Shown: one piece after another, positions 18,913 to 47,433 of the stretch
Position numbering within the stretch: position 1 is the stretch's first letter
How the letters are laid out: each line of letters opens with the position of its first letter
Assembly (NCBI GenBank): GCA_963815215.1
Contig: CAWFFU010000011.1
Location: 1-64,000 of the forward strand
Origin: an uncultured Trueperaceae bacterium
GTDB lineage: Bacteria; Deinococcota; Deinococci; Deinococcales; Trueperaceae
Length of the DNA: 64,000 nucleotides
Direction: 5' to 3'
Notes under the pieces: model-generated
Seen by the model: the letters and a program-made list of their open reading frames with translations, nothing else
Database searches by the model: none
Told to the model about the DNA's origin: nothing
Translations under genes and position numbers: made by a program

Positions 18913-20229
18913 GTGACGCCCGGACAAGGCCGAAGCCTGCGAACAGGCGCGACCCGTGGCGGCCCAAGCGTTGAGACCTGGGTCGTTTCGATGCTCATGG
19001 CGCTCGTCCTCGCATCCGGTGCCGCCTGGGCACAGGGCGGTTCCACGAACGCCGCACCGCCGTTACAGATCGGCGTCATCCTGCCGCCCCAGACGAGCCG
19101 TGACCCATTGCAGGCCGCGGTCGCCACCTCCGCGCACCAGGGCACAGTCATGGCCGAGGACGAGCTCGGCCAGAACGCGGCCCTATTGGGTATGCCCTTC
19201 AAGACCATCGTCGAGACGGCATCGACGCCGGAACAAGCAACTGCCGCCGCGCAGACGTTGGTGAAGCAAGGCGTCGTGGCCCTCATCGGTGGCGGCTCCG
19301 ACAGCGCCGTCCTCGCCATGACGAAGGTCGCCGACAACGCGAAGATCCCACTGCTCAACATCCTGGCTCCGGCCGACAACTTGCGCAACCGAGACTGCAG
19401 CCCGTACCTCTTCGACATCGCGCCCAGCACGGCGATGGAGTTGGACGCACTGGAGGGATGGTTCGTCGGATCCGGCTTCCGCAGATGGGTGTTCGTCACG
19501 AGCGACGACGCCACCGGCAAGGCCATGGTGGATCGGGCGGAACAGGGCATGAAGCAGCGGCACTTCGCAGCCCAGGTCACTGCCGTGGTCAGGGTGTCTG
19601 CCGACCAGGTGAGCGCAGCGGCGACGCTACAGGCGGTGAAGAAGGGGACGCCGGACGTGGTGGTGCTGTTGCTCCCGGCACAGCAGCAGCTCGCCTTCGC
19701 GAAGGCCTTCGCCGGCGCCGGGATCGATGCGCAGCTCACGGGGCTGCCGTACCCCGCGGCTGAAACGCGCACTTTCTACAAGGCGTGGCTTGCGGCGACC
19801 GGTGAGTCGAAGGGGGCGTACCGGGCCGAGGCATGGGAAGCGACCCTCGACTCGTACGGCGCCACTCAACTCAACATGCGTTTCGAACAGCGGTTCCACG
19901 CTCCGATGGACGCCGCCTCCTGGGCGGCCTACCAGGGCATCAAGATCCTCTACGACACGTTCACGGCTGGCGGAGCCAAGACGTCCAACGCCATCGTCGC
20001 GTTCTTCGAGAACTCCACGACCGTGTTCGACGTCTGGAAGGGGATCGGCACCAGTTTCCGGCCCTGGGACCATCAGCTCCGCCAGTCACTCTTCCTCGCC
20101 CACCTCGAGAAGGACGGCTCCGTCACCCTCGTGGGGGAACTACCCGCCATCTACAGACCGGGCACCAGCCCGATCGAGCGCTTGGATCAGTTGGGGGATC
20201 TCAAGGGAACTTCACGATGCCACTTATGA
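18913..20229 (+). CDS. ABC substrate-binding protein of PQQ-dehydrogenase systems (PedA1-like)
   Basis: Signal peptide ...AAWAQ; type I PBP fold; SFRPWDHQLRQ and C-terminal LDQLG...C. Start uncertain (18913 or 18991). Confidence 0.75.
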   Translation: MTPGQGRSLRTGATRGGPSVETWVVSMLMALVLASGAAWAQGGSTNAAPPLQIGVILPPQTSRDPLQAAVATSAHQGTVMAEDELGQNAALLGMPFKTIVETASTPEQATAAAQTLVKQGVVALIGGGSDSAVLAMTKVADNAKIPLLNILAPADNLRNRDCSPYLFDIAPSTAMELDALEGWFVGSGFRRWVFVTSDDATGKAMVDRAEQGMKQRHFAAQVTAVVRVSADQVSAAATLQAVKKGTPDVVVLLLPAQQQLAFAKAFAGAGIDAQLTGLPYPAAETRTFYKAWLAATGESKGAYRAEAWEATLDSYGATQLNMRFEQRFHAPMDAASWAAYQGIKILYDTFTAGGAKTSNAIVAFFENSTTVFDVWKGIGTSFRPWDHQLRQSLFLAHLEKDGSVTLVGELPAIYRPGTSPIERLDQLGDLKGTSRCHL

Positions 20230-21350
20230 CGTCGATCGCGCGCCCCGGGAGGCCCATGGACATGAACCCTCATCCGTCACCCACGATCCCGCCTCGCGGC
20301 CGCGCTGCGCCTGCGACCCGCAAGCTCCTGAGGATTCTCGCGTTGGTGGCTGGTCTGGCGGCGTTCCCCGCCAGCCTGGTCCTGGCGCAGTCGTCGTCCA
20401 CCGACTACCGGATCTACGTGTCGAACGAGTTCGGCGCGGACATCACCGTCTTCGATGGGCACACCCTCCAGAAGATCGGCGACATCAAAGTGTCGGACCG
20501 GCCGGGCGACGTCCGGCCCCGCGGGATGGCCGTCAGCCCCGACGGGAACACGGTCTGGGCCGCCGTGAGCGACTTCAAGCCACAGCAGCAGAGCACCGCG
20601 GATCGACTGGCCGCGATCGACGTCAAGACGGACAAGATCATCGAGTCGATCCCGGCCGGCGTCAACCCCGAGCGCGTGGCTCTGAGCCCGGATGGGAAGC
20701 AGATCTGGGCCGCGCTGGAGGCTTCGGGGCAGGCGGGCGCGTACGACACGGCCACGGGCAAGGAGCTCGGCGTATTCCCGGTGGGCATCGAGCCGGAGGG
20801 GGTGGCGGTCAGCCCGGACGGCAAGTGGGCGCTCATCTCGTCGGAGACGTCGCATACCGTGGCGATCATCGATGCCAAGAACCTGAAGCGTGTGAAATTC
20901 CTGCTCGTCGGAAACCGCCCCCGCGTGATCCGCTTCTCACCGGACGGCAAGGTCGCCTACGTCTCTGCCGAGATCGGCGGCACGATCTCCGTCATCGACA
21001 TCGCCCAACAGAAGGTCATCAAGACGATCTCGCTCGGACTGGACTCGCGGCCTGTGGGAATGGCGGTGTCGGAAGACGGCACCCGCTTGTACGTGGCCGG
21101 CGGCGGCACCAACGCCGTCTACGCCATCGACACGGCGACGGACAAGGTGATCGCGACCATCAGTGACAAGATGGGGCGCCGCCCGTGGGGCATCGCCATC
21201 TCACCGGACGGCTCGACCATCTACACGGCGAACGGCCTATCGGACAGCATGTCGGTGATCGACGTCAAGTGCCTATGCGTCGTCAACAACGTCAGCGCCG
21301 GTCGCGGACCGCACTCCGTCGTGGTCGGCAGGGTCCCCAGTGGAAACTGA
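20226..21350 (+). CDS. YVTN beta-propeller protein of PQQ systems (PedA2-like)
   Basis: YVSNE, RPRGMAVSPDG, EPEGVAVSPDG, TSETSH-like SSETSH, GRRPWGIAISPDG, YTANGLSD repeats; signal peptide. Confidence 0.85.
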   Translation: MTSIARPGRPMDMNPHPSPTIPPRGRAAPATRKLLRILALVAGLAAFPASLVLAQSSSTDYRIYVSNEFGADITVFDGHTLQKIGDIKVSDRPGDVRPRGMAVSPDGNTVWAAVSDFKPQQQSTADRLAAIDVKTDKIIESIPAGVNPERVALSPDGKQIWAALEASGQAGAYDTATGKELGVFPVGIEPEGVAVSPDGKWALISSETSHTVAIIDAKNLKRVKFLLVGNRPRVIRFSPDGKVAYVSAEIGGTISVIDIAQQKVIKTISLGLDSRPVGMAVSEDGTRLYVAGGGTNAVYAIDTATDKVIATISDKMGRRPWGIAISPDGSTIYTANGLSDSMSVIDVKCLCVVNNVSAGRGPHSVVVGRVPSGN

Positions 21351-22407
21351 TCTTCGCCGCTTCCCGGGGCTCCGGGCCGTCACTGTTTCGCTCACCGTCC
21401 TGGCCCTCTCGATCGGAGGATCGGCGTGGGCGCAGGCGCAGCCGTTCCACGATCGCCCGATCCAGGTCGCGGCCGCGTACGGGGCGGAGCGCATGGGGGT
21501 TCGCTTCGAGGCTCTCGGCGCACTGCTCGACGCGACTGGATCGGCGGCGATCACGATCACGCCCGCAGATGCGGTCAAGGATGCTGCCGCCACCGCCAAC
21601 GCGGCCCTGAACGACGATTGGCCCCTGGTCCAGGCAACGCTGGCGAAGGTCGATCCGTCGCTGGCGACTTCCCTGCTCGATGCCCTGAAGGCGGTGTCGG
21701 CTGGTCCCAGACCGGACGTGGTCGGCCTGGCCGTGCAACGCGCCAACGCCTTGACGCAGCAGGCATTGCAGGCGCTGGAATGGGGGTCCGACCAGGGCCC
21801 CGCCGCGAGAGCGACGTTGGCCGCGCTCCTGCTGACGGGGCCGGGCGGCCTGGACGACAGTTACGACGCCGCGGCGGGGGACGGATCGTCTCTCGACACG
21901 GCCGTGGCGTGGGCGGCGTTGCAGCGGTTCCACAGGCTGTGGTTGACGCTCGCCCCGCTCGCCGACGCGAAGCAGGCCTCGGACATCAACGACGCCTTGG
22001 GGCAACTCATTCACCTCCTCCCCACAGCCACCCCCACGCGCAAACCCGACGGCGGCACATCGAACGACGTCGGGGACCACAGCACGCGCATCGTCGGTAC
22101 CTTGGAGTCCGTGATGAACGCGTCGCTCGTGCCCGACCGGGACCTGGCTGCACTCGCCGATACCGTGCAGCGGATCGCGACACAGGCGTGCGGCGCGGGC
22201 CATCCCGACGCAGCACAGGCTCTCGCGGTCACCCGCTTCTACTACGTGGGCTACCTCGAAGCGACCGCCTCGATGCTGGCTCCGGACGATGACAAGGCTG
22301 TCCTGGACGCCCTTGCTGCGCTTCGGAAGGGCTCCGCCGGTGCTGATATCACGTGTCCGCCGTTGCTCAAAGGTCTCGGCAATGTGACCACCGCGTTGGG
22401 AGGTTGA
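21340..22407 (+). CDS. Secreted alpha-helical repeat protein, unknown function
   Basis: Signal peptide ...SAWAQ; overlaps the upstream gene and abuts the ATPase; three similar helical segments. Confidence 0.7.
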   Translation: METDLRRFPGLRAVTVSLTVLALSIGGSAWAQAQPFHDRPIQVAAAYGAERMGVRFEALGALLDATGSAAITITPADAVKDAAATANAALNDDWPLVQATLAKVDPSLATSLLDALKAVSAGPRPDVVGLAVQRANALTQQALQALEWGSDQGPAARATLAALLLTGPGGLDDSYDAAAGDGSSLDTAVAWAALQRFHRLWLTLAPLADAKQASDINDALGQLIHLLPTATPTRKPDGGTSNDVGDHSTRIVGTLESVMNASLVPDRDLAALADTVQRIATQACGAGHPDAAQALAVTRFYYVGYLEATASMLAPDDDKAVLDALAALRKGSAGADITCPPLLKGLGNVTTALGG

Positions 22408-22412
22408 CGACC

Positions 22413-23207
22413 GTGCCGCCTGCCATCACCTGCCAAGGATTGGCCCGCAGCTTCGATGCGTTCGTCGCGGTCCGCGAAGTGAGCTTCGCCGTCGAGGAAG
22501 GTGAACTGTTCGGCCTGCTGGGACCCAACGGTGCGGGCAAGTCCACCACGCTGCACATGCTCACGACCGTGCTGGAGCCTAGCCAGGGCTCCGCTGCGGT
22601 GCTGGGGCACGACGTTCAGAAAGATGCCGCCGTCGTCCGGTCCCTCATCGGGATGGTGTTCCAGGAGCCGGCGCTGGACGAGCGCCTCACCGCGCGCGAG
22701 AACCTCGCCATGCACGCGGTGCTGTACGCCATCCCTAGGGCCGTGACACGCGAGCGCATCCAGCTGGCCCTGGAGTGGGCAACGCTCGAGAAGGACGGGG
22801 ACCGGGCGGTGCGCACCTTCTCGGGAGGGATGAAACGACGCCTCGAGCTGGCCCGCGCCCTCATGCACGATCCGAAGGTGCTGTTCCTCGACGAGCCTAC
22901 CGTCGGACTCGACCCGCAGGCCCGGCGCCATCTCTGGGAGAGCGTCCGCACCCTTCGGAGAGAGGGCCTTACCGTGTTCATGACGACGCACTATCTGGAG
23001 GAAGCCGAAGACTGCGACCACGTCGCCATCATGGACCACGGTGAGGTCATCGCGTTCGGATCGCCCGGCGAGCTCGAGGGCACGCAGGACCGCACCCTGG
23101 AGGACGTCTTCCTGGACCTGACGGGACGGGCGCTGCGCGACGAGGCGGCCACACCGCGGGCACGACTCCTTGCCTTCGGCAAGCGGGGCGGGGAGCACAC
23201 ACGGTGA
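22413..23207 (+). CDS. ABC ATP-binding protein (DrrA/PedB-like)
   Basis: GPNGAGKST, FSGGMKRR, LFLDEPTVGLD, TTHY. Confidence 0.9.
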   Translation: MPPAITCQGLARSFDAFVAVREVSFAVEEGELFGLLGPNGAGKSTTLHMLTTVLEPSQGSAAVLGHDVQKDAAVVRSLIGMVFQEPALDERLTARENLAMHAVLYAIPRAVTRERIQLALEWATLEKDGDRAVRTFSGGMKRRLELARALMHDPKVLFLDEPTVGLDPQARRHLWESVRTLRREGLTVFMTTHYLEEAEDCDHVAIMDHGEVIAFGSPGELEGTQDRTLEDVFLDLTGRALRDEAATPRARLLAFGKRGGEHTR

Positions 23208-24091
23208 GGGCGGCCGTCCAGGGCCCATCGCGCCCCGCACTGGATGTGCGGGTCGCGGCAGCGTTCTGGCGCCGCGAGATGCTCCGCTACTGGCGCGATC
23301 GCTCCCAACTCTTCGGCGGCTTCTCGCGCACGGTGCTGTGGCTGATCATCCTCGGATTCGGCCTGGGAGCAGCGCTCCGCCAGATCGAGGGGTACAGCTA
23401 CGCGCAGTACATCCTCCCCGGTGTCGTCACCCTGAACGTGCTCTTCGCCTCCCTGCAGTCGGCGATCGCGATCGTCTGGGACCGCGAGGTGGGCCTTCTT
23501 CGCGAGGTCCTCGTCTCCCCCGCACCGATGTTCTCGGTGGCGCTCGGCAAGGTGCTCGGCGGTGCAACCGTGGCCGTCGTGCAGGGCACCATCCCGCTGA
23601 TCTTCGCACCCATCATCGGGGTTCGTCTCACGGTGCCCAACGTGCTGCTCGCCTGGTGCGTGATGCTCTCGATGGGCGTTCTGCTCACGTCCTTCGGCGT
23701 GGTGATCGCCGCCCGGATGAAGACGTTCGAAGGGTTCGGAAGCATCTCCAACGGCATCATCCAGCCGCTGTACTTCCTGTCGGGCGCCATCTTCCCCATC
23801 CGCGGCATCATCGGCGGTGTGGGTTTCCTGTCCATCCCGGATCAGCTGCGGCAGGAGCTCCAGCGCTACGGCGTGTACTCGATCGGGAGCGGCTGGCTGG
23901 TTCAGCTTCCGATCTGGCTGCGGGTGCTGGTCTACGCCAACCCGGTCAGCTACGAGCTCGACCTGCTACGCACCGTGCTGCTCGGCTTCCGGCAGCTCCC
24001 AGGCATCGCCGACCTGAGCGTGGCGCTCGTCCTACCGCTGCTGGCAACAGGCGTGGCGGCGCGGGCCATGCGCCGCATGTACAAGCACTGA
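23204..24091 (+). CDS. ABC-2 permease (DrrB/PedC-like)
   Basis: YILPGVV, DREVGLLREVLVSP, FLSGAIFP, NPVSY. Confidence 0.88.
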   Translation: MRAAVQGPSRPALDVRVAAAFWRREMLRYWRDRSQLFGGFSRTVLWLIILGFGLGAALRQIEGYSYAQYILPGVVTLNVLFASLQSAIAIVWDREVGLLREVLVSPAPMFSVALGKVLGGATVAVVQGTIPLIFAPIIGVRLTVPNVLLAWCVMLSMGVLLTSFGVVIAARMKTFEGFGSISNGIIQPLYFLSGAIFPIRGIIGGVGFLSIPDQLRQELQRYGVYSIGSGWLVQLPIWLRVLVYANPVSYELDLLRTVLLGFRQLPGIADLSVALVLPLLATGVAARAMRRMYKH

Positions 24092-24131: not shown

Positions 24132-27100
24132 CTATACTCCCCGCGCGGTCCCGGGACTCCGGCCACGCGATGCCCGGCCACGCCGGAGCATCGCCCACCA
24201 GGTCCGGAGCGACAGGTACCGTGCCGCCAGCTCTACCAGGAACACGCCCAGCGCGAGCAGGAGCCACAGGTCGGGAAGGAAGCGCGAGGTCAAGCGCCAA
24301 CCCGACCGGCCGGGCACCAATGGCTCCGGCCCGGTCAGGACGCGGCCACCCGTCGCGCCGGCGATGGCCTCGAGCAGGCCGGGTTGGTCCGCGCCCTGCG
24401 CGTACCTCGCCGGATAGGTGGCGACCAACAGGCCGGATGCCGGGGTCCAGGTTGTGGGTCCCGTGGCCCCGCCGGTCGGGCCGACCTGCGCTCGGTAGCT
24501 GCCTGCGCCGTCGATCGCGAAACCGCCCTCGTAGCTCCCCTGAGCCGCTTCCCGTAGGGTCACCGTCTGCTTGCGACCGTCGGGGCCGGTGACGGCCGCG
24601 GCGAGGCGAACGCCGGAGGCGGGCTCGCCGTTCGGTGCCACGGCCTGGACCTCGATGCGTCCCTCATCTCCCCGGCGCGTGAGGCGCACGTTGAGACCGG
24701 GGCGCGGAGCCTTGGAAAGGGTCCAGCGCACCGCCTGCGACCACAGCTTGGCGTAGATCGGGTCGTTCAGCCACGCAGCCGTCCACGGGCCTGCCGCCTC
24801 AGACGCGAAGGCGATCACCCGGCCCACGCCGTAGCGCCATGAGGCCAGCAACGGGGTACCGTCGGCCCCCGCGAGCGCCACGTTCGCCTGGGGCTTGACG
24901 GACGTCTGGACGTACCCTCCCAGCGGCGGAAGGGTGTCGGGGAGCCCTTCCAGGAAACTCGCCTTGCGATCGCCCCAGATGGGCTGGATGGACTCGCTCT
25001 TCACGGGGTTGGCCGAGAGCAGCAGGGCCTCCTGCGCCAGGATGCTCGGCAGCGCCTTGACATCGGTGGCGGCGTGGAACGCGCCCTTGCCCAGTGAGGC
25101 GATGTGCTGCAGGAAGCTCTTGTCCGCTTCCTCGCTGATGGAGACCGCGCTGACGGTGATGCCTGCCGCACGCATCTGGGAGATGATGCCCTCGAAATCG
25201 GCGGGTTGCGACAGCCCGTCGGACATCACGACGACGTGCTTCGTCATCGAGTCCACCCCCTGGAGCTCGTGCAGCGCCTCGACCAGCGCCGGGTACAGCG
25301 CCGTCCCACCCGCCGCCTGGACGGCGGCCAGCCGGCTCGACAGGTCGGTGAGGGCGCTCACCTTCTGCAGGGGCACGACCGGGGTGGCCCTGGTGTCGAA
25401 CACCACCACGCCCGTCAGGCTGGCAGGATTCAGGAGCTTGACGGCGTCCACCGTGGCGCTCTTCGCGATCGCCAGCCGCGACATGCCACCCACCTGCTGC
25501 TGCATGCTGCCGGAGCGGTCCAGCACGAACAGCAGCGCCACCTGAGGGGCCTGTCGGGGGATCTTGCTGGAGAGCGGTGACATGCGCTCGATCGGCGTGT
25601 TGAAGTAGCCGCCGGGCCCGAAGCTGTTGGCACCCCCAAGGATCAACAGCCCACCACCGTCGTCCCTCACCCAGGTCTCGAGCTGGGCCTGTTGTGTCGA
25701 GTGCAAGTCGATCGCCGGCACATCCATGAGGATGGCGGCGTCGTACGCGAGCCAGCCCTTGACGTCCCAGGGAGCGTTCGTGGGCGACACCACGTCGGCC
25801 TTCACGCCCTGCTCGGCGAGGGCGGCGACGAGCACCTTGGCGCGGGCTGGCGTCTCGGTCACGAGCGCGACCTTCGGCTCGGGGCGTACATCGACGACTG
25901 CGGTATTGCGGTCATTGGTCGCGAACGTGTCACTCGCGGCCTTGACCTCCATGGTGACCGTGTGCTCGCCACTCGTGTCAACAGTGAGCTTGGCCTGAAC
26001 GTCGTTGCTCCCCTGGGCGAGCTGTACGTTCCGCTGCTCCTTGAGGACTCCGTCCTGCAGGATGCGGAGGGTCGCCGGTTGCGGCGTCGCGCTGCGGACG
26101 ATCCCGTGTACCGTGAACGGCCCCTTCGGGTAGACGTCGGGCGGTGTCCGCACCGCCTCGACCGATGCGTCCCCGGTGCGTCCTGCCGCCACCGGCAAGA
26201 CGTCGATCGGGATCCTCCGCGCGCGGGCCTCGGCAAGGGCGTCACCCAGATCGCCACCCGCTGCGGCATCACTGGCGGCCACCACCACCCGCCCGCCCCG
26301 ACCGCGAGGCAGCATGCCCAGCGCGGTCCGGAGGGCGTCGCCGAGGTCGGAGCCTGGCCAGGTAGCGGCCGGCACCGACGCCGTAGGGCGCCACCGCGAG
26401 CCGAGGTCGGCCGCCACCGCGGGCTCGGAGCTCAGCGACACGACGCCCAGGCGGGTGTTGGCACCCGCGCTCCCCGCGGCCGCCGCGCGGAACGACCGAA
26501 GGGTCGACGAGGCCGGCGTAGGAAGCAGGCTCGGCTGGTCGGATATGAGCACCGCCTGATGGTCGTGCTCCGGCCAAGGAAGGGGAGGATCGACCAGGGC
26601 CAGCACCAGTAGCGCTGCCGCCGCGAGCCGCCACGCCCACACCGCACGCCACCGGAACGTCCGTCCCCGGCCACGGGAACGCTGGCCCAGGGGCGCGCCG
26701 GCAGCCAGCCAGGCCTCCGCCAACAGGACGAGCAGCGCCGCCGCCAGCAGGACCTTCCAGGTCGCCGGAAGATTCCGAGCGCCGGGCGCGGCCCCTGTTC
26801 CCTTCGACTGCAAGGCGGAGAAGGACGACCCCCAGGCATTGACCGCGACCGTTCGCCGGGCAGCGCCGTCCTCCACCGTGTACAGGCCTGGCTGACGGGG
26901 CCTGAACAGGGGGGCGAGACCCGCTGCGTACCACGCCTCCGGCGTGGCTCCCGACGCGGCTCCCGGGGTGGCTCGCGGCGTGACCCACGGATCGAGCAGC
27001 GGGATGGCCGCGCCGGTGGGGCCGTGCAGCTGCGCACTCGGACCGGCGAGACCGGGATCGAGCGGGCAGGCCTGGCCCGCCCGGCAAGGGGTCACGACCG

Positions 27101-38001: not shown

Positions 38002-38004
38002 AGG

Positions 38005-40693: not shown

Positions 40694-40833
40694 AATGTAG
40701 CCCTGGTCCGTGCGAAGCGTCAAGCACCGTCACGACGCGAAGGCGCGCGCCGCAGCAGGCGCTCGCACGATCCGAGCGCGCTAGAGCCAAACGTCCCGAA
40801 CCCTATAGACAATCGTGAACGTAGTGTTAGACT
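40694..40833. promoter_or_regulatory. Divergent promoters (cytochrome c / cox-bc operon)
   Basis: Minus: TTGACG (40718-40723), 18 bp, TACATT (40694-40699). Plus: TAGACA (40806), 16 bp, TGt-TAGACT (40828-40833). Confidence 0.45.
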
Positions 40834-41066
40834 CACCCAAGTCCGGCCGACCACGTTACGGCTGACGATCCGGTTCGCGGCCAGAGCGTCGAGCCGAAGT
40901 CGCGAAGGGTGTCTACTGGCCCGTCATCAAGGGTCCCGCGATGTCACGTCACGGGCAGACTGGCCTCCTCGACCGACCGCACGTCACCGTCCGTGGGAGT
41001 CGTACGTCAATCCAAGATCAGGGTGGTGATGGAGCGTCCCGTACCACCCGCGTGGAGTGAGGGTGC

Positions 41067-42020: not shown

Positions 42021-43714
42021 TGACACAGAAGTCGGCTGCAGCGACACCGGAACACGTCGCTCCTCAGGAGCTGCCGTTCCCACCGTTGAATCGTGGATGG
42101 GGATGGCTGGCGTGGTTCTCCACGACCGATCACAAGAAGATCGGCATCTTGTACATCGTCACGTCGCTGTTCTTCTTCGGTGTCGGGGGCATCGAAGCCC
42201 TGCTGATCCGCATTCAGCTGGCGGCCCCCAACGCCAGGGTGCTGACCCCCGCGGAATACAACGCGATCTTCACCATGCACGGAACCACGATGATCTTCCT
42301 CGTGGTCATGCCGATCCTGATCGGTCTGGCGAACTTCCTCGTGCCGCTCATGGTAGGCGCGCGCGACGTCGCCTTCCCGAGACTGAACGCTCTCGGGTAC
42401 TGGGTCTTCTTGCTCGGTGGCGTCGTGATCTACCTGGCGCTCTTCACCGGGAGCCTGGCCAATGCCGGCTGGTTCAGCTACGCGCCACTGAGTGAGTATG
42501 CCTTCAGCTCACGGCCCGGCATGGACTACTGGATCGTAGGCTTGATCGAGACCGGCGTCGGCACGATCGGTGCGGCAGTGAACCTGATCGTGACCACGGT
42601 TCGCTACCGCGCCCCGGGCATGACGTGGCGTCGGATGCCGCTGTTCGTGTGGATGATGTTCATCACCAGCCTGTTGATCCTGTTCGCGCTCACGCCCCTG
42701 AACGCGGGCCTCATCATGCTGCTCGGCGACCGTATCCTTCACATGCACTTCTTCCGCGCGAATGCCAGCGGCGGCTCGGCGATCCTGTGGCAGCACATCT
42801 TCTGGTTCTTCGGGCATCCCGAGGTCTACATCATGGCGTTGCCGGCCTTCGGGATCATCTCCGAGGTCATCCCCGTCTTCTCGCGGAAGCCGATCTTCGG
42901 GTACAACTTCGTCGCCGGCTCCGGGGTCGCCATCGGTCTGCTGAGCTTCGCGGTCTGGGTCCACCACATGTTCGCGGTGGGGCTGGGAGTTCCCCTGAAC
43001 GCAGCGTTCAGCGGTGCGAGCATGCTCATCGCGGTACCCACCGGCGTCAAGATCTTCAACTGGAGCACCACCATGTTCCAGGGGCATATCCGCCTCAAGA
43101 CGCCGCTGCTGTTCGCGGCCGCGTTCATCATCCAGTTCGTGATCGGCGGCATCACGGGCATCATGTTCGCGGTGGTACCCATCGACTGGCAGCTCACGGA
43201 CAGCTACTTCGTGGTGGCTCACTTCCATTACGTGCTCTTCGGTGGCACCATGTTCGCGCTGTGGGCAGGCGTGTACTACTGGTTCCCGAAGTTCACGGGA
43301 CGACTGCTCCACGAGCGGCTCGGCAAGTGGCACTTCTGGCTGGCGGTGGTCGGCTTCAACATGACCTTCTTCGTCCAGCACATCCTGGGCCTGATCGGCA
43401 TGGCCCGCAGGACCTACACCTATCCGAACCTGCCGGGCTACTTCGCCCTCAACCTCATCTCGACCATCGGTGCGTTCATCCTGGCTGTGTCCGTGGTGCT
43501 GTTCCTGTGGAATCTGGTGTGGAGCTTCCGCAAGGGTGAGATCGCAGGGGACAACCCGTGGGACGCCTGGACGCTGGAATGGGCAACCACTTCGCCACCG
43601 CCGGAGCACAATTTCGTGCGCCTGCCTCCCGTGAACAGTGCCAGGCCGCTCTTCGACCTTGCCCATCCGGAGATGGCCGACGGCATCTCGAAGCGAACGG
43701 AGGGCCACGCATGA
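42020..43714 (+). CDS. ctaD: Cytochrome c oxidase subunit I, type A1
   Basis: TDHKKIG, MHGTTM, DVAFPRLN, GHPEVY, WVHHMF, PTGVK, AHFHY. Confidence 0.97.
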   Translation: MTQKSAAATPEHVAPQELPFPPLNRGWGWLAWFSTTDHKKIGILYIVTSLFFFGVGGIEALLIRIQLAAPNARVLTPAEYNAIFTMHGTTMIFLVVMPILIGLANFLVPLMVGARDVAFPRLNALGYWVFLLGGVVIYLALFTGSLANAGWFSYAPLSEYAFSSRPGMDYWIVGLIETGVGTIGAAVNLIVTTVRYRAPGMTWRRMPLFVWMMFITSLLILFALTPLNAGLIMLLGDRILHMHFFRANASGGSAILWQHIFWFFGHPEVYIMALPAFGIISEVIPVFSRKPIFGYNFVAGSGVAIGLLSFAVWVHHMFAVGLGVPLNAAFSGASMLIAVPTGVKIFNWSTTMFQGHIRLKTPLLFAAAFIIQFVIGGITGIMFAVVPIDWQLTDSYFVVAHFHYVLFGGTMFALWAGVYYWFPKFTGRLLHERLGKWHFWLAVVGFNMTFFVQHILGLIGMARRTYTYPNLPGYFALNLISTIGAFILAVSVVLFLWNLVWSFRKGEIAGDNPWDAWTLEWATTSPPPEHNFVRLPPVNSARPLFDLAHPEMADGISKRTEGHA

Positions 43715-44283
43715 CGCGAGCTGGCGCAAGCGGCACGACCATGAATCGCCACAAGATCGGGATGCTGTTCTTCATCGGCTCCGAGATCTTCTTCTTCCTG
43801 ACGTTGCTGTCGAGCTACGCCTACCTGAGCGGGGCCTTCGGTGACCTGCCCAGGACGGTCCTCGCCGTCCCACGCACCTTCGTGTTCAGCCTGTTCCTGT
43901 TCTCGAGCAGCCTGACGATCTGGATGGCGGAGCGCGCCTTCCATCGCCGTCGCTTCGGGGCGTTCCGCGGCTGGATGGTGCTCACGATCCTGCTGGGACT
44001 GACCTTCCTGGTGGGCCAGGCCATCGAGTACACGGAGCTGATACGCACCGGCGTGACGCTCAACTACGATGTTTTCGGCTCGGCGTTCTTCACACTCACA
44101 GGCTTCCACGGCCTGCACGTCCTCACGGGACTGATCATGCTCAGCTCGCTGACAGGTCTGAGTTTCGCCGGCAAGCTGGGGCCCGAGAACGAATCCGCAT
44201 TGGCTTCCATCGCGTACTACTGGCACTTCGTTGATGCCGTGTGGGTAGCGGTCTTCAGCGTCGTCTACCTGATCTTCGTGTGA
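43711..44283 (+). CDS. ctaE: Cytochrome c oxidase subunit III
   Basis: FIGSEIFFF, GQAIEY, TGFHGLHV, YWHFVDAVW. Confidence 0.93.
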   Translation: MTRAGASGTTMNRHKIGMLFFIGSEIFFFLTLLSSYAYLSGAFGDLPRTVLAVPRTFVFSLFLFSSSLTIWMAERAFHRRRFGAFRGWMVLTILLGLTFLVGQAIEYTELIRTGVTLNYDVFGSAFFTLTGFHGLHVLTGLIMLSSLTGLSFAGKLGPENESALASIAYYWHFVDAVWVAVFSVVYLIFV

Positions 44284-44285
44284 TC

Positions 44286-45275
44286 ATGACGACCGGACGC
44301 CTTCTCGCCATCGCTTGGAGTCCCGATCCTTCGGTCATCGGAGGGACGGCGGCACTGGTGGTGGCGTACGCTCTATGGCTCCGCACTCGGCCCGGCCTGC
44401 GCTCGCTGTTGTTCCTCGCTGGCATCGTGGTGCTGCTCGGCGCCCTCGTGTCGCCGATCGACCGCATCGGAGAGCTCTATCTGTTCAGTGTGCACATGGT
44501 CCAGCACATGCTGTTGCTGCTGGTGGTGCCTCCCCTGTTGATCTGGGGGTTGCCGCCCCGCGCCACGCGCGACCTCCTGAAGTCACCGCTGCTCAGCAGG
44601 GTCGAGAGCGCCCTTGGCCGACCCGCCGTGGCCCTGCCCGTCATGGTCGTCACCTTGTGGGCGTGGCACATCCCCTCGCTCTACCAGGCCGCCCTTCTCA
44701 ACGACGGCATCCACGCCCTCGAACACCTGCTCTTCCTGGTCACGGCAACGATGTTCTGGTGGCCCGTGCTGACACCGGTGAAGGACCGCCGACTGTCACC
44801 GCCCCACGCCATGATGTACCTGTTCGGCGCCATGGCCTCGATCTCGATCCTGGGCATCATCCTCACCTTCGCACCGGCACCGCTGTACCACTTCTACGTG
44901 CGGCCCCCCGACCCCTATCGGGCGCTGGCCCTCATTCGCAACGACTGGGGCGTCTCGGTGCTGGGCGATCAGCAGATCGGTGGCGTGCTGATGTGGATCG
45001 TGGGAGGCATCTTCTACATCCTGGCGATCCTCACGGAGTTCGGTCTGTGGTTCAGTGGGCCGGACGTCGACGCTCCGTCGGCGACGCAGGGCTCGGGGCC
45101 GCCAACGATCGCGGAGCCGACCCCGGTCGCGGCAGCGAGATCCGACGCGGGTGCCGCCGGCGTACGCGACCCGACGACCGGCGCCACGCTTCCCCACGCA
45201 TCATCGCTACAGACACCGCGCGCGTCGCGGCCACATCGATGGACTTTGATCAACGCATTGGAAGGAGCAGGATGA
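44286..45275 (+). CDS. ctaG: caa3-type oxidase assembly factor
   Basis: LFSVHMVQHMLL, WAWHIP, HALEHLLF, DQQIGGVLMW. Confidence 0.88.
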   Translation: MTTGRLLAIAWSPDPSVIGGTAALVVAYALWLRTRPGLRSLLFLAGIVVLLGALVSPIDRIGELYLFSVHMVQHMLLLLVVPPLLIWGLPPRATRDLLKSPLLSRVESALGRPAVALPVMVVTLWAWHIPSLYQAALLNDGIHALEHLLFLVTATMFWWPVLTPVKDRRLSPPHAMMYLFGAMASISILGIILTFAPAPLYHFYVRPPDPYRALALIRNDWGVSVLGDQQIGGVLMWIVGGIFYILAILTEFGLWFSGPDVDAPSATQGSGPPTIAEPTPVAAARSDAGAAGVRDPTTGATLPHASSLQTPRASRPHRWTLINALEGAG

Positions 45276-45496
45276 CCGACAACGAACACACCGAATGGCA
45301 GCAGCCGCGCGAAATGCTGATCCCGCGCCCTACGGCGTGGCCACTGCTCACGGCCTTCGGAATCACCTTCATCCTGCTAGGCCTTGTCACGGTGTGGCTC
45401 GTGGCCGTGGCTGGGATCATCATGTTCGTGACCTCGATCGTTGGATGGATGGGAGAGATGCTTCGTGACGGACAATCCCACGAATCCCACGGCTGA
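45272..45496 (+). CDS. Cytochrome c oxidase subunit IV-like small protein
   Basis: IPRPTAWPLLTAFG...IVGWMGE, 2 TM; GGAG RBS; ATGA coupling. Confidence 0.7.
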   Translation: MTDNEHTEWQQPREMLIPRPTAWPLLTAFGITFILLGLVTVWLVAVAGIIMFVTSIVGWMGEMLRDGQSHESHG

Positions 45497-46013
45497 GACC
45501 GGTGCCGCGGGCGATGATACGGGTCGCCGCAAGTTCTTGAGCCGCTTGAGCATCGGTCTGGGCTCCCTCGCCGCGCTCATCGTCGGGCTGCCCACGGTGC
45601 TGGACGTTCTGAAGCCGATGGTCGCGAAGGAACCGCGGGTGTGGCGCAAGGTTGGCGCCGTCGACTCGTTCAAGGTGGGCCAGACCGTCGAGGTGAGCTT
45701 CGAGAATGCCGGGACCAACGCCTGGGCCGGGAAGGCGGGGGCGACGGCCGCCTATCTTCGCAGGGACGGCACCAACAGCTTCACCGCCTTCACAGTCAAC
45801 TGCTCCCATCTCGGTTGTCCGGTCCGCTGGGAACAGAAAGCCAACATGTACCTGTGCCCGTGCCACGGCGGCGTGTATTACGCCAACGGCGACGTAGCGG
45901 CAGGTCCTCCGCCGCGACCCCTTGCGCGCTATCCCGTCCGCGTGACGCAAGGCGACGTAGAGATCCTGACCACGCCTCTGCCGATCGACGGCAGGGTGCC
46001 GCACTCGAGTTGA
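45465..46013 (+). CDS. Rieske 2Fe-2S subunit of the quinol:cytochrome c reductase
   Basis: Tat-like RRKFL plus TM; CSHLGC and CPCHGG. Confidence 0.93.
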   Translation: MTDNPTNPTAETGAAGDDTGRRKFLSRLSIGLGSLAALIVGLPTVLDVLKPMVAKEPRVWRKVGAVDSFKVGQTVEVSFENAGTNAWAGKAGATAAYLRRDGTNSFTAFTVNCSHLGCPVRWEQKANMYLCPCHGGVYYANGDVAAGPPPRPLARYPVRVTQGDVEILTTPLPIDGRVPHSS

Positions 46014-46014
46014 G

Positions 46015-47433
46015 GTGCTGTCCATGATGCGTCGCATCGGAAACTGGCTCGAGGAGCGCACGGGGATGGCCGAGTTGATCCGGCCCGTGATGTCCCACCT
46101 CGTTCCTCGCGGCTCGGCGTGGCTCTACGTGTTCGGCAGCGCCACCCTGTTCGCCTTCATCCTCCAGGTCGTCACGGGCATCGCCCTCAGCTTCACCTAC
46201 GTTCCGTCGACCAGCCAGGCCTACCAGAGCCTGAAGTTCATCACCGACAACTCGGCCCTCGATCACTTCTTGCGGTCGGTGCACTACTTCGGGGCGTCCG
46301 CGATGGTGTTGATGGTCGGTCTCCACATGTTGCGCACCTTCCTCTTCGCGTCGTACAAGTACCCGCGCGAAGCGAGCTGGATGAGCGGTACGGTCCTACT
46401 GTTCCTCACGGTCTCGATGGGTTTCACCGGTCAGATCCTGCGCTGGGACCAGACGGCCATCTGGTCTGTCGTGGTCGGCGCACAGCAGGCCGGGTACGTG
46501 CCGCTGATCGGGCCCGCGATAGCACGCTTCCTGCTCGCGGGTGAAACACTGGGAGGCGCGACTCTCGGGCAATTCTTCGCTCTGCACGTGTTCGTCTTCC
46601 CGATCCTGATCGTGGCGCTGCTGGCTCCCCACCTGTGGATGGTGATCCGCAACGGCATCTCGGAGCCTCCCAAGCAGGGGCGCCCGGTGGATCCCAAGAC
46701 CTACGTCGCCGAGTACCATGCGTTGCTCGAGCGTGACGGCGTCCCGTTCTGGCCCGATGCAGCCTGGCGCGACGTGGTCTTCGCCGTGGTCATGATCGTC
46801 GCCATCGTCGGTCTCGCGATCACCATGGGACCGCCGCATCTGGCCGCCGCGCCCGATCCCACGAACCTCGTCGCGGCGCCGAAACCCGACTGGTACCTGC
46901 TCTGGTACTTCGGGGTCCTGGCTCTCATCCCGCACCTGTTGACCCCGTACGTGATCATCGGCGGGCCGCTCATCGTGTTCGCCGTCCTGTTCTTCTTCCC
47001 CCTCTTCGCGAGGCAGGGCGAGCGCCACATCGTCCGGCGCCCCTGGGCGATCGGCGTGGCAAGCATCGTGATCGTGGCCATCGCATCGTTCTGGTGGCTG
47101 GCGACCTGGGAACCGTGGTCGCCACGCTACAACGCTCCGCCGTTGCCGGCCCAGGTGGTGGGGACGGTCAGCGCTTCAGCGCAGACGGGTGCCCAGCTCT
47201 TCCATGATCGGGGCTGCGAGGACTGCCACCGGATCGGCAAGTACGGCGGCTTCCGCGGACCGAACCTGACCTACGTCGGTAATCGTCTCACGGGCGTGGA
47301 ACTGACGTGGCGCATCGCCAACGGCGGCTACAACATGCCGGCGTTCGGCGGCATGTTGTCGAGCCAGCAGCTCAACGATCTGGTCGCGTTCCTGGAGACG
47401 CGCAAGCCCAGCCTGAACACCGAATCGAAGTAG
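46015..47433 (+). CDS. Cytochrome b fused to C-terminal cytochrome c
   Basis: Heme b His in RSVHY..GLHML and ALHV..PHLW; Qo motif PDWY; CEDCH...MPAF. Confidence 0.93.
   Translation: MLSMMRRIGNWLEERTGMAELIRPVMSHLVPRGSAWLYVFGSATLFAFILQVVTGIALSFTYVPSTSQAYQSLKFITDNSALDHFLRSVHYFGASAMVLMVGLHMLRTFLFASYKYPREASWMSGTVLLFLTVSMGFTGQILRWDQTAIWSVVVGAQQAGYVPLIGPAIARFLLAGETLGGATLGQFFALHVFVFPILIVALLAPHLWMVIRNGISEPPKQGRPVDPKTYVAEYHALLERDGVPFWPDAAWRDVVFAVVMIVAIVGLAITMGPPHLAAAPDPTNLVAAPKPDWYLLWYFGVLALIPHLLTPYVIIGGPLIVFAVLFFFPLFARQGERHIVRRPWAIGVASIVIVAIASFWWLATWEPWSPRYNAPPLPAQVVGTVSASAQTGAQLFHDRGCEDCHRIGKYGGFRGPNLTYVGNRLTGVELTWRIANGGYNMPAFGGMLSSQQLNDLVAFLETRKPSLNTESK

Follow-up and report, generated by a model that had tools for sequence, protein, structure and literature searches.

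A conserved Deinococcota gene cluster around a predicted periplasmic PQQ-dependent dehydrogenase adjoins housekeeping respiratory genes in a Trueperaceae genome

The window analysed here, a stretch of 64,000 nucleotides from an uncultured Trueperaceae bacterium, carries between positions 18913 and 47433 genes for a PQQ dehydrogenase, its candidate helpers, two ABC systems, c-type cytochromes, a caa3 oxidase and a Rieske/cytochrome b complex. Families were assigned by Pfam, NCBIfam (with curated cut-offs) and PDB sequence searches, which established gene content and family assignments directly and recovered, at their coordinates, all the gene types listed by an initial annotation of the region. 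The Deinococcota host claimed in that annotation agrees with the GyrB comparison it had called for, where all 13 organism-named sources among the best 120 GyrB matches point to Deinococcales/Trueperaceae. The host, from soil or sediment, belongs to the family Trueperaceae within the Deinococcus group, and its genome is 97% complete. The region consists of two parts with different histories, a PQQ accessory cluster (~18.9-40.7 kb) and a set of respiratory genes.

On the plus strand, the cluster begins with a LivJ-type periplasmic binding protein similar to PedA1 (18913, GTG, or 18991, ATG, to 20229; PF13458, 6.4e-39), which has a signal-peptide-like N-terminus and a homologue of 54% identity, with gene order kept, in a family relative. 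It is followed by a PedA2-like YVTN-type beta-propeller with a signal peptide (20256-21350; PF10282/PF21783; homologues of 59-67% identity in three relatives), an exported all-helical protein (21340-22407), a PedB-like ABC ATPase (22353-23207; PF00005, 6e-36) and a PedC-like ABC-2 permease (23204-24091; PF01061, 1.4e-27; 75-89% identity to relatives). PedA1A2BC comprises a binding protein, a YVTN propeller, an ATPase and a permease, and the window set has the same four types plus the all-helical protein. For the latter, Pfam and NCBIfam gave no family, a set of 5.8 billion proteins held only 7 homologues, and a structure model (pLDDT 84.6) suggests generic helical bundles only, including weak EfeO/EfeM/Algp7/imelysin rows. 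The sole NCBIfam match of the PedA1-like protein is TIGR03863 PQQ_ABC_bind (125.5 bits, cut-off 413.6), while the propeller scores 245 bits with TIGR03866 PQQ_ABC_repeats (cut-off 287.3), the ATPase 228.4 with TIGR03864 PQQ_ABC_ATP (cut-off 302.25) and 301.2 with drrA (cut-off 312.45), and the permease 109.5 with TIGR03861 PedC (cut-off 241.35) and 150.7 with drrB. Since all four proteins score under the curated cut-offs, the Ped/Lut-like transporter proposed earlier stands as a four-gene ABC set by homology and synteny, with a likeness to Ped/Lut that falls short of clade membership. In the pertinent part of PMC6839425, PedA1A2BC is described as required for growth at nanomolar La.

The genes from 24132 to 40639 form one tight string on the minus strand, of which the first encodes a small exported or anchored cytochrome c (40136-40639; PF00034, 2.2e-12) of 167 residues with CXXCH at residue 44. 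Upstream of the dehydrogenase gene (34431-36191) lies a fusion of a Lipoprotein_15 repeat domain to a mono-haem cytochrome c (36247-37221, probable start ~37053; PF03640, 1.6e-27; PF13442, 1.2e-12), with CXXCH at residue 244; the CxxxC and WPP of its Lipoprotein_15 domain are invariant in the 14 sequences aligned, and the protein is predicted to be the electron acceptor of the dehydrogenase. Between 18913 and 47433 there are four cytochrome c domains, with a single CXXCH apiece. Downstream, the XoxJ/MxaJ-like partner of the initial annotation does contain an MxaJ/XoxJ-like domain (~residues 62-326), in a protein that turns out to be a fusion with a LivJ-type binding domain (~380-693; PF13458) and has a signal peptide at ~residues 65-83 (32206-34410). 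Its PDB matches are MxaJ 5sv6 (1.2e-21), XoxJ 6onp (7.6e-18) and MxaJ 9ism_B (2.9e-15), and its NCBIfam scores are 136.1 bits for TIGR03871, under the cut-off of 212.15, and 103 bits for TIGR03863. Next come a membrane-anchored low-complexity protein (30552-32090), to which Pfam and NCBIfam assigned no family and which has positional homologues of 26-32% identity in three loci, a MoxR-class AAA+ ATPase of the AAA_3, MxaR type (29457-30467; PF07726, 8.7e-60; PF17863), an MxaS-type DUF58 protein (28571-29452; PF01882, 5.2e-28) and a giant membrane protein (24132-28598) with BatA_N (PF07584, residues 10-84), VWA (PF13519/PF00092, 1022-1188) and GATase1-like (PF07090, 1213-1292) domains, by family the likely functional counterpart of MxaC/MxaL.

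Conservation of this gene order was directly observed in 15 related Deinococcota loci from other lineages, taken as 10 kb on either side of the dehydrogenase (one spans only 4 kb, and two overlap on one contig). In 14 of the 15 the gene immediately upstream of the dehydrogenase encodes the Lipoprotein_15-cytochrome c, and in 14 the one immediately downstream encodes the MxaJ/LivJ fusion; MoxR and DUF58 are each present in 13 and the VWA giant, downstream of DUF58, in nine. A PqqT-like binding protein occurs within 10 kb in seven loci, an importer permease in seven, the ABC-2 permease in five and the propeller in four. Nine proteobacterial loci, whose dehydrogenases are the next best (<=33% identity), had none of the partner genes. 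Homology and synteny thus argue that the linkage of the PQQ dehydrogenase with MoxR-DUF58-VWA, the MxaJ/XoxJ-like helper and c-type cytochromes, as first proposed, extends to related genomes.

The dehydrogenase itself (minus strand; database start M21, position 36131) belongs to the methanol/ethanol superfamily (PF01011, 3.1e-66) and is the sole gene of its kind in the genome. Its TIGR03075 score of 369.5 bits is under the NCBIfam methanol/ethanol-family cut-off of 480.05, and its PDB matches include 22vi (5e-79), PedH 6zcv (6e-69) and XoxF 4mae (2e-64). It has the motif W327-D328-G-D330 (ORF numbering) and lacks the Cys-Cys disulfide. Without exception, the 30 aligned clade members share the W-D-x-D motif, an Asp in place of the Glu ligand and the Trp that stacks on PQQ, and none has the Cys-Cys pair; the same four characters hold in 17/17 tblastn matches of ~40% identity or more in the fetched loci. 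Whereas the calcium-type quinohaemoprotein alcohol dehydrogenases 1yiq and 1kb0 read W-D-Y-T, lanthanide PedH reads W-D-F-D and the window enzyme W-D-G-D, and passages of PMC10875860 and PMC11996626 give this extra Asp as essential for lanthanide binding. Lanthanide use is therefore likely, as a prediction from one invariant residue. Compared with PedH, two of the four metal-ligand positions are changed (Asp replaces Glu and, in 25 of 30 clade members, Gln replaces Asn), so that the metal site of the clade differs from the characterised PedH site. These two changes also fit an enzyme in the same cluster that depends on calcium or another divalent metal, with Ca2+ inserted by MoxR-DUF58-VWA as by MxaRSACKL for MxaFI and with the second Asp in another role in this disulfide-less clade. 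The nearest disulfide-less solved relative cited, 4CVB, contains Ca according to a legend in PMC11996626, DepA is reported with Ca in part of PMC11331073, and the discussion in PMC12276312 has MoxR/VWA helpers mark the calcium enzyme and be dispensable for XoxF in the systems studied. Against calcium stand the invariance of the Asp two residues past the catalytic one, the Thr at its position in the compared calcium-type enzymes, the W-D-Q-E found in place of D-x-D in the solved disulfide-less relatives 22vi and 9m2c, and the co-located Ped-like transporter set. We regard the calcium reading as possible, at perhaps one chance in four, and keep to a likely lanthanide enzyme, predicted to act outside the cytoplasm on scavenged PQQ.

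The scavenging of PQQ is suggested by the second ABC system. The two ABC systems of the initial annotation are both present and are of different classes, the ABC-2 PedA1A2BC-like set described above and an NMT1/SsuA-class importer, on the minus strand, consisting of an ATPase (37264-38001; PF00005, 3e-31), a BPD_transp_1 permease (38005-38898; PF00528, 1.5e-20) and a PqqT-like periplasmic binding protein (38870-39853). The last matches PDB 9b1u over residues 29-321 (1.8e-26), which PMC11331073, in the part bearing on it, identifies as PqqT with PQQ; both of its two PDB matches are PqqT entries. Of the PQQ contacts, T41, G112, D141 and K142 are conserved; the window protein also keeps Y188 but has Ser for N143 of PqqT, and orthologues differ at Y188 (Y/F/P/L). 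The GT.SW, GG and DKS motifs are invariant in 13/13 aligned rows (12 fetched loci, with two duplicate pairs and 11 distinct sequences). Neither PqqC nor PqqB was found in the 97%-complete genome, its best PqqE candidate is a radical-SAM match of 62.7 bits (cut-off 381), and tblastn of the pSymB pqq ORFs against it gave no match, while the positive control, PqqC in pSymB, scored 428 bits. PqqC is also absent from 5/5 cluster-bearing relatives and exceeds its cut-off in only 10 of 364 genomes of the phylum, 99 of which have a PQQ dehydrogenase homologue. The PqqT-like protein occurs in 75 of the 364, and the dehydrogenase is present in 64/75 genomes with it versus 35/289 without it, these genomes being related and not independent. 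It could be argued that the importer carries another substrate, such as a sulfonate, a nitrate-like anion or an oxidation product, and that MoxR-DUF58-VWA is a general Bat-like stress module merely travelling with the dehydrogenase. The best NCBIfam matches of the three importer proteins are of sulfonate/taurine/nitrate type (phosphonate/taurine/nitrate for the ATPase), all under cut-off, and 11 of the 75 binding-protein genomes lack a dehydrogenase at E<=1e-30; MoxR-DUF58-VWA sets are widespread, and a second MoxR-DUF58 pair lies elsewhere in this genome. That pair is only 53%/34% identical to the one in the cluster, and the exclusive match to PqqT structures, the invariant PQQ-contacting Lys and its Asp neighbour, the co-occurrence with the dehydrogenase and the position of MoxR and DUF58 beside it in 13/15 loci make this alternative improbable.

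Beyond the cluster, on the plus strand, lie the caa3 oxidase genes (41067-45275; PF00510, PF09678), encoding CoxB with a C-terminal cytochrome c, CoxA, CoxC and CtaG, followed by a Rieske protein and a cytochrome b with a C-terminal cytochrome c (45441-47433; PF00355, PF00033, PF13442). TIGR02866 scores 208.6 bits, above its cut-off, and CoxA 708.7 with TIGR02891 (cut-off 670.75). The initial annotation had proposed one self-contained substrate-to-oxygen module spanning the whole 28 kb. The dehydrogenase, helpers, ABC sets and cytochromes c do stay together in relatives, but the caa3 and Rieske/cytochrome b genes do not belong with them. In six congeners a 2-hydroxyacid dehydrogenase gene is followed within ~330 bp by coxB-coxA-coxC-ctaG-Rieske-cytb with neither the PQQ block nor the cytochrome c of 40136-40639 in between, and gyrB comes next after cytb where the contig continues. 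No cox, Rieske, cytochrome b or gyrB gene lies within 10 kb in any of the 15 other-lineage PQQ loci, and the genome G342 has no cox genes between its PQQ block and gyrB. The genome studied here has no A-type oxidase other than caa3 and no second detectable Rieske gene. In favor of a single co-evolved module are the distance of only 8.8 kb between PQQ block and gyrB in G342, the contiguity of the region and its junction, since the sediment metagenome of a second study includes a contig that spans the cytochrome c/CoxB boundary (39843-41217, 6 differences), which is thus not an assembly artefact of a single data set. Linkage in related genomes, to which the initial annotation had tied its proposal, is missing for the oxidase/Rieske part, with the exception of one other congener, G331, where the same junction occurs with a 61% identical cytochrome c. 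The divergent 427-bp spacer (40640-41066) contains two promoter-like sites, versus 0.1 expected from the consensus scan (consensus matches only), one at 40806-40833 on the plus strand towards coxB and one at 40723-40694 on the minus strand towards the cytochrome c gene, and G331 has a conserved counterpart of the stretch 40777-40834. The PQQ genes and the oxidase may thus be co-regulated in this genus, yet a single module is very improbable; caa3 and Rieske/cytochrome b belong to the housekeeping genes of the genus, outside the PQQ set.

Homology and synteny suggest cofactor scavenging, enzyme maturation and periplasmic oxidation as the functions of the cluster, and a pathway can be envisioned as follows. 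The cell, making no PQQ, would capture or import external PQQ with the PqqT-like protein, the permease and the ATPase. As a separate observation, a periplasmic enzyme has no obvious need for cytoplasmic PQQ, which speaks against the import step. The metal may be handled by the PedA1A2BC-like set and the all-helical exported protein, in line with the proposal made for lanthanide in Pseudomonas putida. The MxaJ-like domain of the fusion would then help to load PQQ into the Sec-exported apo-dehydrogenase, which would obtain its metal via the MoxR-DUF58-VWA machinery, steps modelled on MxaJ and MxaRSACKL of the calcium methanol dehydrogenase; part of PMC12276312 describes MxaJ as a PQQ-insertion chaperone and MxaR/S/A/C/K/L as required for Ca insertion. 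The metal site would consist of Asp (Glu in PedH), Gln/Asn, the catalytic Asp and, two residues on, the extra Asp. The Lipoprotein_15-cytochrome c, and possibly the 167-residue cytochrome c as well, may pass electrons on to the general pool of cytochromes c and the ordinary terminal oxidases of the cell. Considering these findings, the interpretation we favor, at somewhat better than even odds, is that ~18.9-40.7 kb is a conserved Deinococcota accessory cluster whose predicted role is to assemble a single PQQ-dependent alcohol/polyol dehydrogenase in the periplasm and keep it supplied, with a lanthanide as the likely metal of the enzyme, next to the caa3 and Rieske/cytochrome b genes that serve the housekeeping respiration of the genus.

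We found all of the gene types listed in the initial annotation, which had read the whole of 18913-47433 as one self-contained lanthanide/PQQ module leading from substrate to oxygen, between those positions in Pfam and NCBIfam scans. Because the window is about 70% G+C, its raw ORF lists were crowded, and genes were chosen by third-position G+C ahead of the scans. The Ped-like operon lies on the plus strand and opens with a binding protein of the LivJ type, which starts at 18913 or 18991 and ends at 20229. After it come a YVTN beta-propeller (20256-21350), an exported protein without a family (21340-22407), an ABC ATPase (22353-23207) and an ABC-2 permease (23204-24091). Converging on it is a minus-strand string, with most gaps being a few bases or overlaps, which is transcribed from a cytochrome c gene (40639-40136) into three importer genes, for the binding protein, the permease and the ATPase (39853-37264). 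Next come a fusion of Lipoprotein_15 to cytochrome c (37221-36247), the gene of the PQQ dehydrogenase itself (36191-34431), a second fusion that joins MxaJ-like and LivJ-like domains (34410-32206), a membrane protein of 512 residues without a family (32090-30552), MoxR (30467-29457), DUF58 (29452-28571) and a BatA_N/VWA protein of 1488 residues (28598-24132). Reading away from the cytochrome c gene, on the plus strand, are coxB with a fused cytochrome c, coxA, coxC, ctaG, the Rieske gene and cytochrome b, also with a fused cytochrome c (together 41067-47433), and gyrB follows cytochrome b on the strand opposite to the cox genes. The haem motifs of the cytochromes in the block were as expected.

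The host was placed in Deinococcales/Trueperaceae by GyrB, where all 13 organism-named rows among the best 120 matches agreed and the best named match was 94% identical. At 97% completeness, the genome amounts to 3.32 Mb, spread over 14 contigs. Among named genome records, the closest relatives of the dehydrogenase came from Trueperaceae MAGs, Calidithermus roseus and 'Deinococcaceae bacterium' MAGs. Counting only studies with a share of at least 0.45, the stretch is present in soil and sediment metagenomes of two studies, the salt-marsh rows being small shares. A salt-marsh metatranscriptome run gave nine short contigs 95-99% identical to parts of the stretch, at a share of words of 0.05; as a signal of expression these were set aside, since they belong to relatives and may stem from DNA carried over.

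The dehydrogenase matches Pfam PF01011 at 3e-66 (224.8 bits against a cut-off of 26.7) and reaches 369.5 bits with NCBIfam TIGR03075, the methanol/ethanol family, which is under that model's cut-off of 480.05. In a PDB search, 26 solved family members match it at E<=1e-37. We assign it by sequence to the eight-bladed quinoprotein alcohol dehydrogenase superfamily, and it is the only gene of the eight-bladed quinoprotein type in the genome. The identities of its homologues in a set of 5.8 billion proteins slide from 82% to 40% and then fall to 35%, and the enzyme belongs to a distinct clade, the named members of which are all Deinococcota. Throughout the 30 aligned members of this clade, W-D-x-D, the Asp of G-P-S-G-A-D, the Trp of G-G-x-S-A-W and two separate Cys are invariant, the signal peptide ends in A-x-A ahead of Q-T, and the catalytic Asp (D308 in the numbering of that alignment, P0001) and the PQQ-stacking Trp (W242) are both kept, D308 aligning with the W-D of PedH and W242 with the Trp of its G-G-A-A-P-W stretch. 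By profile the clade scored 357 bits with 22vi, 355 with PedH, 350 with 1yiq, 301 with XoxF and 257 with MxaF, so that on this measure the enzyme is nearer to the ethanol-type enzymes than to XoxF or MxaF.

The lanthanide enzymes PedH/ExaF (6ZCV/6ZCW) and XoxF (4MAE, 6DAM) fall in one superfamily with the window enzyme (profile E-values of 5e-105 for PedH and 1.4e-88 for 4mae), and they have in common with it the catalytic Asp, an extra Asp two residues on, the PQQ-stacking Trp and the export signal. However, the window enzyme is only about 30-35% identical to enzymes of the PedH/XoxF type, a level also seen with plasmid-borne homologues, has Asp in place of the Glu ligand and, in most clade members, Gln in place of the Asn ligand, and is without Cys-Cys. 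Its partners also differ, being a Lipoprotein_15-cytochrome c and the attached MoxR-VWA genes where the PedH/XoxF side has cytochrome c550/cL. Neither the window dehydrogenase nor any of the 30 clade members contains a CC dipeptide, while PedH has C-C at the aligned place; in MxaF and XoxF the vicinal Cys-Cys disulfide neighbours PQQ, according to the excerpted text of PMC11331073. In this respect the window enzyme resembles a disulfide-less set consisting of 4MH1 (sorbose dehydrogenase), 4CVB (Pseudogluconobacter ADH), DepA (7WMD), 22VI and 9M2C. The best single-sequence PDB match is indeed 22vi (5e-79), but both 22vi and 9m2c have W-D-Q-E at the motif where the Deinococcota clade has W-D-x-D.

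Each of these features bears on the identity of the metal. When the profile is compared with the solved structures, an invariant Asp of the clade aligns with the Glu of PedH in G-G-E-F-G, and the position of the PedH Asn in G-N-P-A-P-W is occupied by Gln in 25 of the 30 members and by Asn in 5; we take this Glu and Asn of PedH to be metal ligands. The extra Asp two past the catalytic one, which makes the motif W-D-G-D in the window, is D310 of the alignment and was found in 30/30 aligned members and in 17/17 locus matches. The W-D-x-D motif aligns with W-D-F-D in the lanthanide enzyme PedH and with W-D-Y-T in the calcium-type quinohaemoprotein ADHs 1yiq and 1kb0, and the extra Asp is described as essential for lanthanide binding in the portions of PMC10875860 and PMC11996626 available to us. 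Since W-D-x-D is kept and the Glu and Asn ligand positions are changed, the enzyme carries the accepted lanthanide marker in an altered ligand set. The invariance of the second Asp and the presence of the Ped-like set argue for a lanthanide, whereas the changed ligand positions, the helper genes of calcium type and the calcium held by the solved disulfide-less relatives argue against it. On balance, we rate a lanthanide as slightly more likely than not to be the metal, and its identity is the weakest link of the mechanism proposed below.

The enzyme type is wider than the Deinococcota and has been predicted in print, because an all-D-x-D sister clade of sorbose dehydrogenases is predicted to be lanthanide-dependent (PMC11996626, in the part of that paper we had) and because Asp-ligand enzymes with W-D-Y-D also occur in proteobacterial arrays. 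These arrays were seen in alphaproteobacterial MAG records (L080-L086), where 2-6 PQQ-dehydrogenase paralogues per 20 kb stand in tandem, with Asp at the Glu-ligand position, W/H-D-Y-D, no Cys-Cys, and the Deinococcota accessory genes absent. Six related Deinococcota loci have a further paralogue with 37-39% identity, some 2 kb downstream of the dehydrogenase of the clade (L072:13400-15079, L073:5558-7198, L074:13975-15624, L077:13880-15547, L079:13908-15605 and L071:13845-15638). Here the catalytic Asp is replaced (W-E/G/A/S-Y-D) and the second Asp is kept; this paralogue may be a partner that is non-catalytic or acts differently. Canonical lanthanide-type dehydrogenases, with Glu and Asn ligands, W-D-Y/F-D and Cys-Cys, were found in the same islands of four relatives (L034:5422-7095, L037:7476-9287, L039:9411-11048 and L095:2917-4725), and each also adjoins a homologue of the Lipoprotein_15-cytochrome c. 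Both canonical and disulfide-less dehydrogenases therefore exist in Deinococcota.

No match to PqqC or PqqB was obtained with profile models in this 97% complete genome, and tblastn with the ORFs of the pqq region of pSymB gave none either. The PqqE model has a single radical-SAM match, of 62.7 bits against a cut-off of 381, and we rejected it as evidence of PqqE, being far under the cut-off and accompanied by weak matches in 14/14 control genomes. As PqqC was itself unmatched in all 14 control genomes, a positive control was run, and in pSymB of Sinorhizobium meliloti the same search did recover PqqC, with 428 bits. PqqC is likewise absent from 5/5 cluster-bearing relatives. Across our phylum set of 364 Deinococcota genomes, 10 have PqqC above its cut-off and 99 have a homologue of the PQQ alcohol dehydrogenase (E<=1e-30), and 91 of these 99 are missing PqqC. 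Scavenging of PQQ seems to be the rule in Deinococcota. Outside the window there is a six-bladed gene of the GSDH family, the soluble PQQ sugar dehydrogenase type (G000:C11:138794-139768, 142.8 bits), which is likely to encode a second PQQ-dependent enzyme in this genome without PQQ synthesis.

A candidate for the uptake of PQQ is the importer whose binding protein (38870-39853) matches only two distinct solved sequences, in three PDB entries. Two of these, 9B1U and 9B1V, are PqqT of Methylorubrum extorquens (PMC11331073, in excerpt), and the third, 9OOZ, for which we found no paper, shows a single-residue difference in the alignment as printed. Residues 29-321 of the window's protein align with 6-297 of the 310 in 9B1U (E 1.8e-26), i.e. 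homology to the AM1 protein is over the full length, at an identity of about 30% by eye. PqqT binds PQQ at about 50-60 nM, as given in the consulted parts of PMC11331073 and PMC12124388. Using the contact list in the former, we compared 13 rows, namely the window and 12 fetched loci, which include two duplicate pairs and hence 11 distinct sequences. The window's protein keeps the PQQ-contacting Thr, Gly, Asp-Lys and Tyr. T41 (in G-T-x-S-W), G112 (in G-G) and D141-K142 (in D-K-S) are invariant in the 13 rows, and Y188 varies among them (Y/F/P/L). Unlike these, N143 of PqqT is Ser in the window and throughout the 13 rows. The two systems also differ in setting, the Methylorubrum protein belonging to a PQQ producer (PMC12124388, as excerpted) and the window gene to a host that does not make PQQ, where it stands in one gene string with a permease, an ATPase and the dehydrogenase. 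The PqqT-like gene was found in 75 of the 364 phylum genomes, and a dehydrogenase homologue accompanies it in 64 of those 75; of the other 289 genomes, 35 have one. This is a pattern and not a test, since related genomes are non-independent and many are incomplete.

The helper genes recall the maturation of methanol dehydrogenase. The MxaJ-like domain matches the solved MxaJ/XoxJ structures 5sv6 (1.2e-21), 6onp (7.6e-18) and 9ism_B (2.9e-15), and it is under the curated cut-offs of TIGR03871 (136.1 against 212.15 bits) and TIGR03870 (98.5 against 258.1 bits); nor is it a stand-alone protein, as it is fused to a LivJ-type domain. MoxR, DUF58 and VWA families (PF07726, PF01882, PF13519/PF00092) are encoded together beside the dehydrogenase. 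Elsewhere in the genome there are a MoxR-DUF58 pair and a VWA protein that are 53%, 34% and 30% identical to those of the block, which makes the block's set an extra, dedicated copy. According to the available part of PMC12276312, MxaJ is a chaperone that lets PQQ into MxaF, and calcium insertion needs MxaR (MoxR), MxaS and the VWA proteins MxaC and MxaL, plus MxaA and MxaK. Neither Pfam nor NCBIfam reported MxaA or MxaK for any ORF of the block, where the 512-residue protein sits upstream of MoxR. The mxa cluster of methylotrophs and the block thus have four part families in common (the dehydrogenase, the MxaJ-like domain, the MoxR ATPase and DUF58/VWA), and in both a c-type cytochrome gene lies beside the enzyme. 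On the other hand, the block is without the small subunit MxaI, combines the VWA functions in one 1488-residue protein, fuses its MxaJ-like domain to a LivJ-type domain, and has in its enzyme the lanthanide-type Asp that MxaF does not. By analogy and at the level of families, we regard the correspondences to MxaJ and to MxaR/S/C/L as firm, and that to PqqT as probable. No published function was found in the literature for Lipoprotein_15/PF03640.

The second transport system was likened to PedA1A2BC of Pseudomonas putida KT2440, which is made up of four proteins (binding protein, YVTN propeller, ATPase and permease), is required for growth at nanomolar lanthanum, and is resembled in all four proteins by a lanthanide ABC system of Methylorubrum (PMC6839425, for all three points in the portion available). 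The four protein types are matched in a single operon on one strand (18913-24091), in the order of binding protein, propeller, ATPase and ABC-2 permease. This likeness was judged from protein types and NCBIfam models. Models of the PQQ system are the only match for the binding protein (TIGR03863, 125.5 of 413.6 bits), the best for the propeller (TIGR03866, 245 of 287.3) and rank in the first three for the ATPase (TIGR03864, 228.4 of 302.25) and the permease (TIGR03861, 109.5 of 241.35), all below cut-off, and daunorubicin-type models outscore them for the last two.

The operon differs from PedA1A2BC by an additional gene between the propeller and the ATPase (21340-22407, plus strand), which encodes an exported all-helical protein of 355 residues. 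It has no family in Pfam or NCBIfam, its best score in the Atlas is 0.85, also without a family, and it has only seven homologues among the 5.8 billion proteins. With a model of pLDDT 84.6, Foldseek found no match at E<=0.001, and in VIA-align its best Z was 11.5, on generic four-helix bundles. Rows for the metal-binding EfeO/EfeM/Algp7/imelysin group are weak (EfeO/EfeM/Algp7 at E 0.06-0.2 and TM 0.27-0.40 in Foldseek; imelysin at Z 10.2 over 125 residues in VIA-align), and the VIA-align result falls under the noise level that this tool states for helical proteins.

To see which genes travel with the dehydrogenase, we compared the window's proteins with 15 Deinococcota loci, being the flanks, up to 10 kb on each side, of the best matches; one of them spans a contig of just 4 kb, and two, on a shared contig, overlap. 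The Lipoprotein_15-cytochrome c is directly upstream of the dehydrogenase and the MxaJ/LivJ fusion directly downstream in 14/15 loci each. MoxR and DUF58 were each found in 13/15, the VWA giant in 9/15, the PqqT-like binding protein and its permease each in 7/15, the ABC-2 permease in 5/15 and the propeller in 4/15. With 20-kb flanks, the full set appears in the window's order in one relative of the family, and the Ped-like operon in three relatives. None of nine proteobacterial loci with the next-best dehydrogenases has the accessory partners. A complete Trueperaceae chromosome (G342) carries a 37-kb double PQQ island at C1:425000-472600 (loci L040, L041 and L063), with two MoxR-DUF58-VWA sets, two dehydrogenases and both Ped-like and PqqT-like sets. 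It is 8.8 kb from gyrB, on the same side of it as in the window, and no cox genes lie between.

The respiratory genes behave differently. Subunit II of the caa3 oxidase scored 208.6 bits with TIGR02866 (cut-off 147.7), with PF00034 fused at residues 234-315, and subunit I scored 708.7 bits with TIGR02891 (cut-off 670.75); subunit III (PF00510) and CtaG (PF09678) are also present. Six congeners have, about 330 bp after the 2-hydroxyacid dehydrogenase gene (17555-18616 in the window), the series coxB-coxA-coxC-ctaG-Rieske-cytochrome b, and in the five whose contig reaches so far gyrB comes next. Homology to this arrangement stops at about 18567 and restarts at about 40988-41044, so that some 22.4 kb, including the 167-residue cytochrome c, is extra in the window. 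No cox, Rieske, cytochrome b or gyrB gene was found within 10 kb in the 15 loci outside the genus. Besides the window copies, the genome has no other A-type oxidase, and no other Rieske gene was detectable in it. The private respiratory chain that had been proposed as part of the module was thus not borne out, as the same locus exists without the block in six congeners and accompanies the dehydrogenase at 0/15 loci outside the genus. A distant haem-copper oxidase (G000:C12:35800-38020; CoxB-like 25%, CoxA-like 24%) lies beside a 37% paralogue of the 167-residue cytochrome c. Next to gyrB, a protein with a Haem_bd domain precedes a response regulator and a histidine kinase (49542-52088, plus strand); this group is kept in congeners, and hence belongs to the ancestral locus outside the PQQ block.

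The 22-kb difference from five congeners could be taken for a recent insertion into the cox locus. We dropped this reading because a short contig of another congener (G331) has the same right-hand junction, coxB being followed by the cytochrome c (61%), the PqqT-like protein (82%) and its permease (71%). This congener also has, on another contig, a distinct cluster in which a PQQ dehydrogenase is accompanied by a Ped-like set. The junction between cytochrome c and coxB is real, since a contig of another study spans 39843-41217. Searching the nearest relative (G334, 99% in GyrB) for 20 kb of the block gave nothing, which is no evidence either way, as contig breaks fall at both edges there. Within the genus the block beside cox shows a presence/absence polymorphism, with two genomes having it, six without and two unreadable, which may have come about by gain or by loss. 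As to marks of a mobile element, Pfam gave no integrase or transposase family in the block, the window has no tRNA, and the two edges of the block share no word of at least 10 bases.

By consensus matches, the spacer between the divergent operons has two separate promoter-like sites, one per direction. Within it, 40777-40834 is kept in G331 and lies in the part not shared by congeners without the block, and this element includes an extended -10-like T-G-T-T-A-G-A-C-T about 230 bp upstream of coxB. Since there are two such sites and part of the spacer is kept, local co-regulation of the oxidase and the block is possible.

A pathway can be envisioned in which PQQ is scavenged from outside and captured by the PqqT-like protein, the apo-dehydrogenase is exported by Sec, PQQ would be loaded via the MxaJ-like domain and the metal via MoxR-DUF58-VWA, and electrons would pass to the Lipoprotein_15-cytochrome c and from there to the general chain. 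In its strongest form this would be a Deinococcota 'scavenge and assemble' kit for a new rare-earth quinoprotein, where the PqqT-ABC system is the long-sought PQQ capture route of non-makers, MoxR-DUF58-VWA inserts lanthanide and not calcium, an enzyme free of the disulfide binds the metal in a re-modelled Asp/Gln/Asp/Asp site, and Lipoprotein_15 docks a dedicated cytochrome c; as a joint reading we think it rather unlikely to hold in full. The individual parts are all of known kinds, and the enzyme type is predicted in print, where it is known from that prediction (PMC11996626, in the text seen). What appears to be new is the combination of a D-x-D disulfide-less enzyme, the MxaJ/LivJ fusion, MoxR-VWA, the Lipoprotein_15-cytochrome c and a PqqT-type importer in an organism that does not make PQQ. 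We found no report of a lanthanide- or XoxF-type system in Deinococcota in the open-access full-text literature.

The failure of the private chain is a caution for reading modules from gene adjacency in one genome. The cluster itself is compact, at about 16 genes, and could be transferred to a test host. The model systems of lanthanide biology are few, and are proteobacterial or verrucomicrobial. If the proposed reading is true, the distribution of genes in the phylum, where 91/99 dehydrogenase-bearing genomes are without PqqC and 64/75 with the PqqT-like gene have the dehydrogenase, would be a genetic argument for the role of PqqT-type transporters; lanthanide-type enzymes would be linked to a MoxR/VWA insertion machinery hitherto tied to the calcium enzyme; and the cluster would add a phylum to lanthanide biology, together with a different make-up of the metal site.
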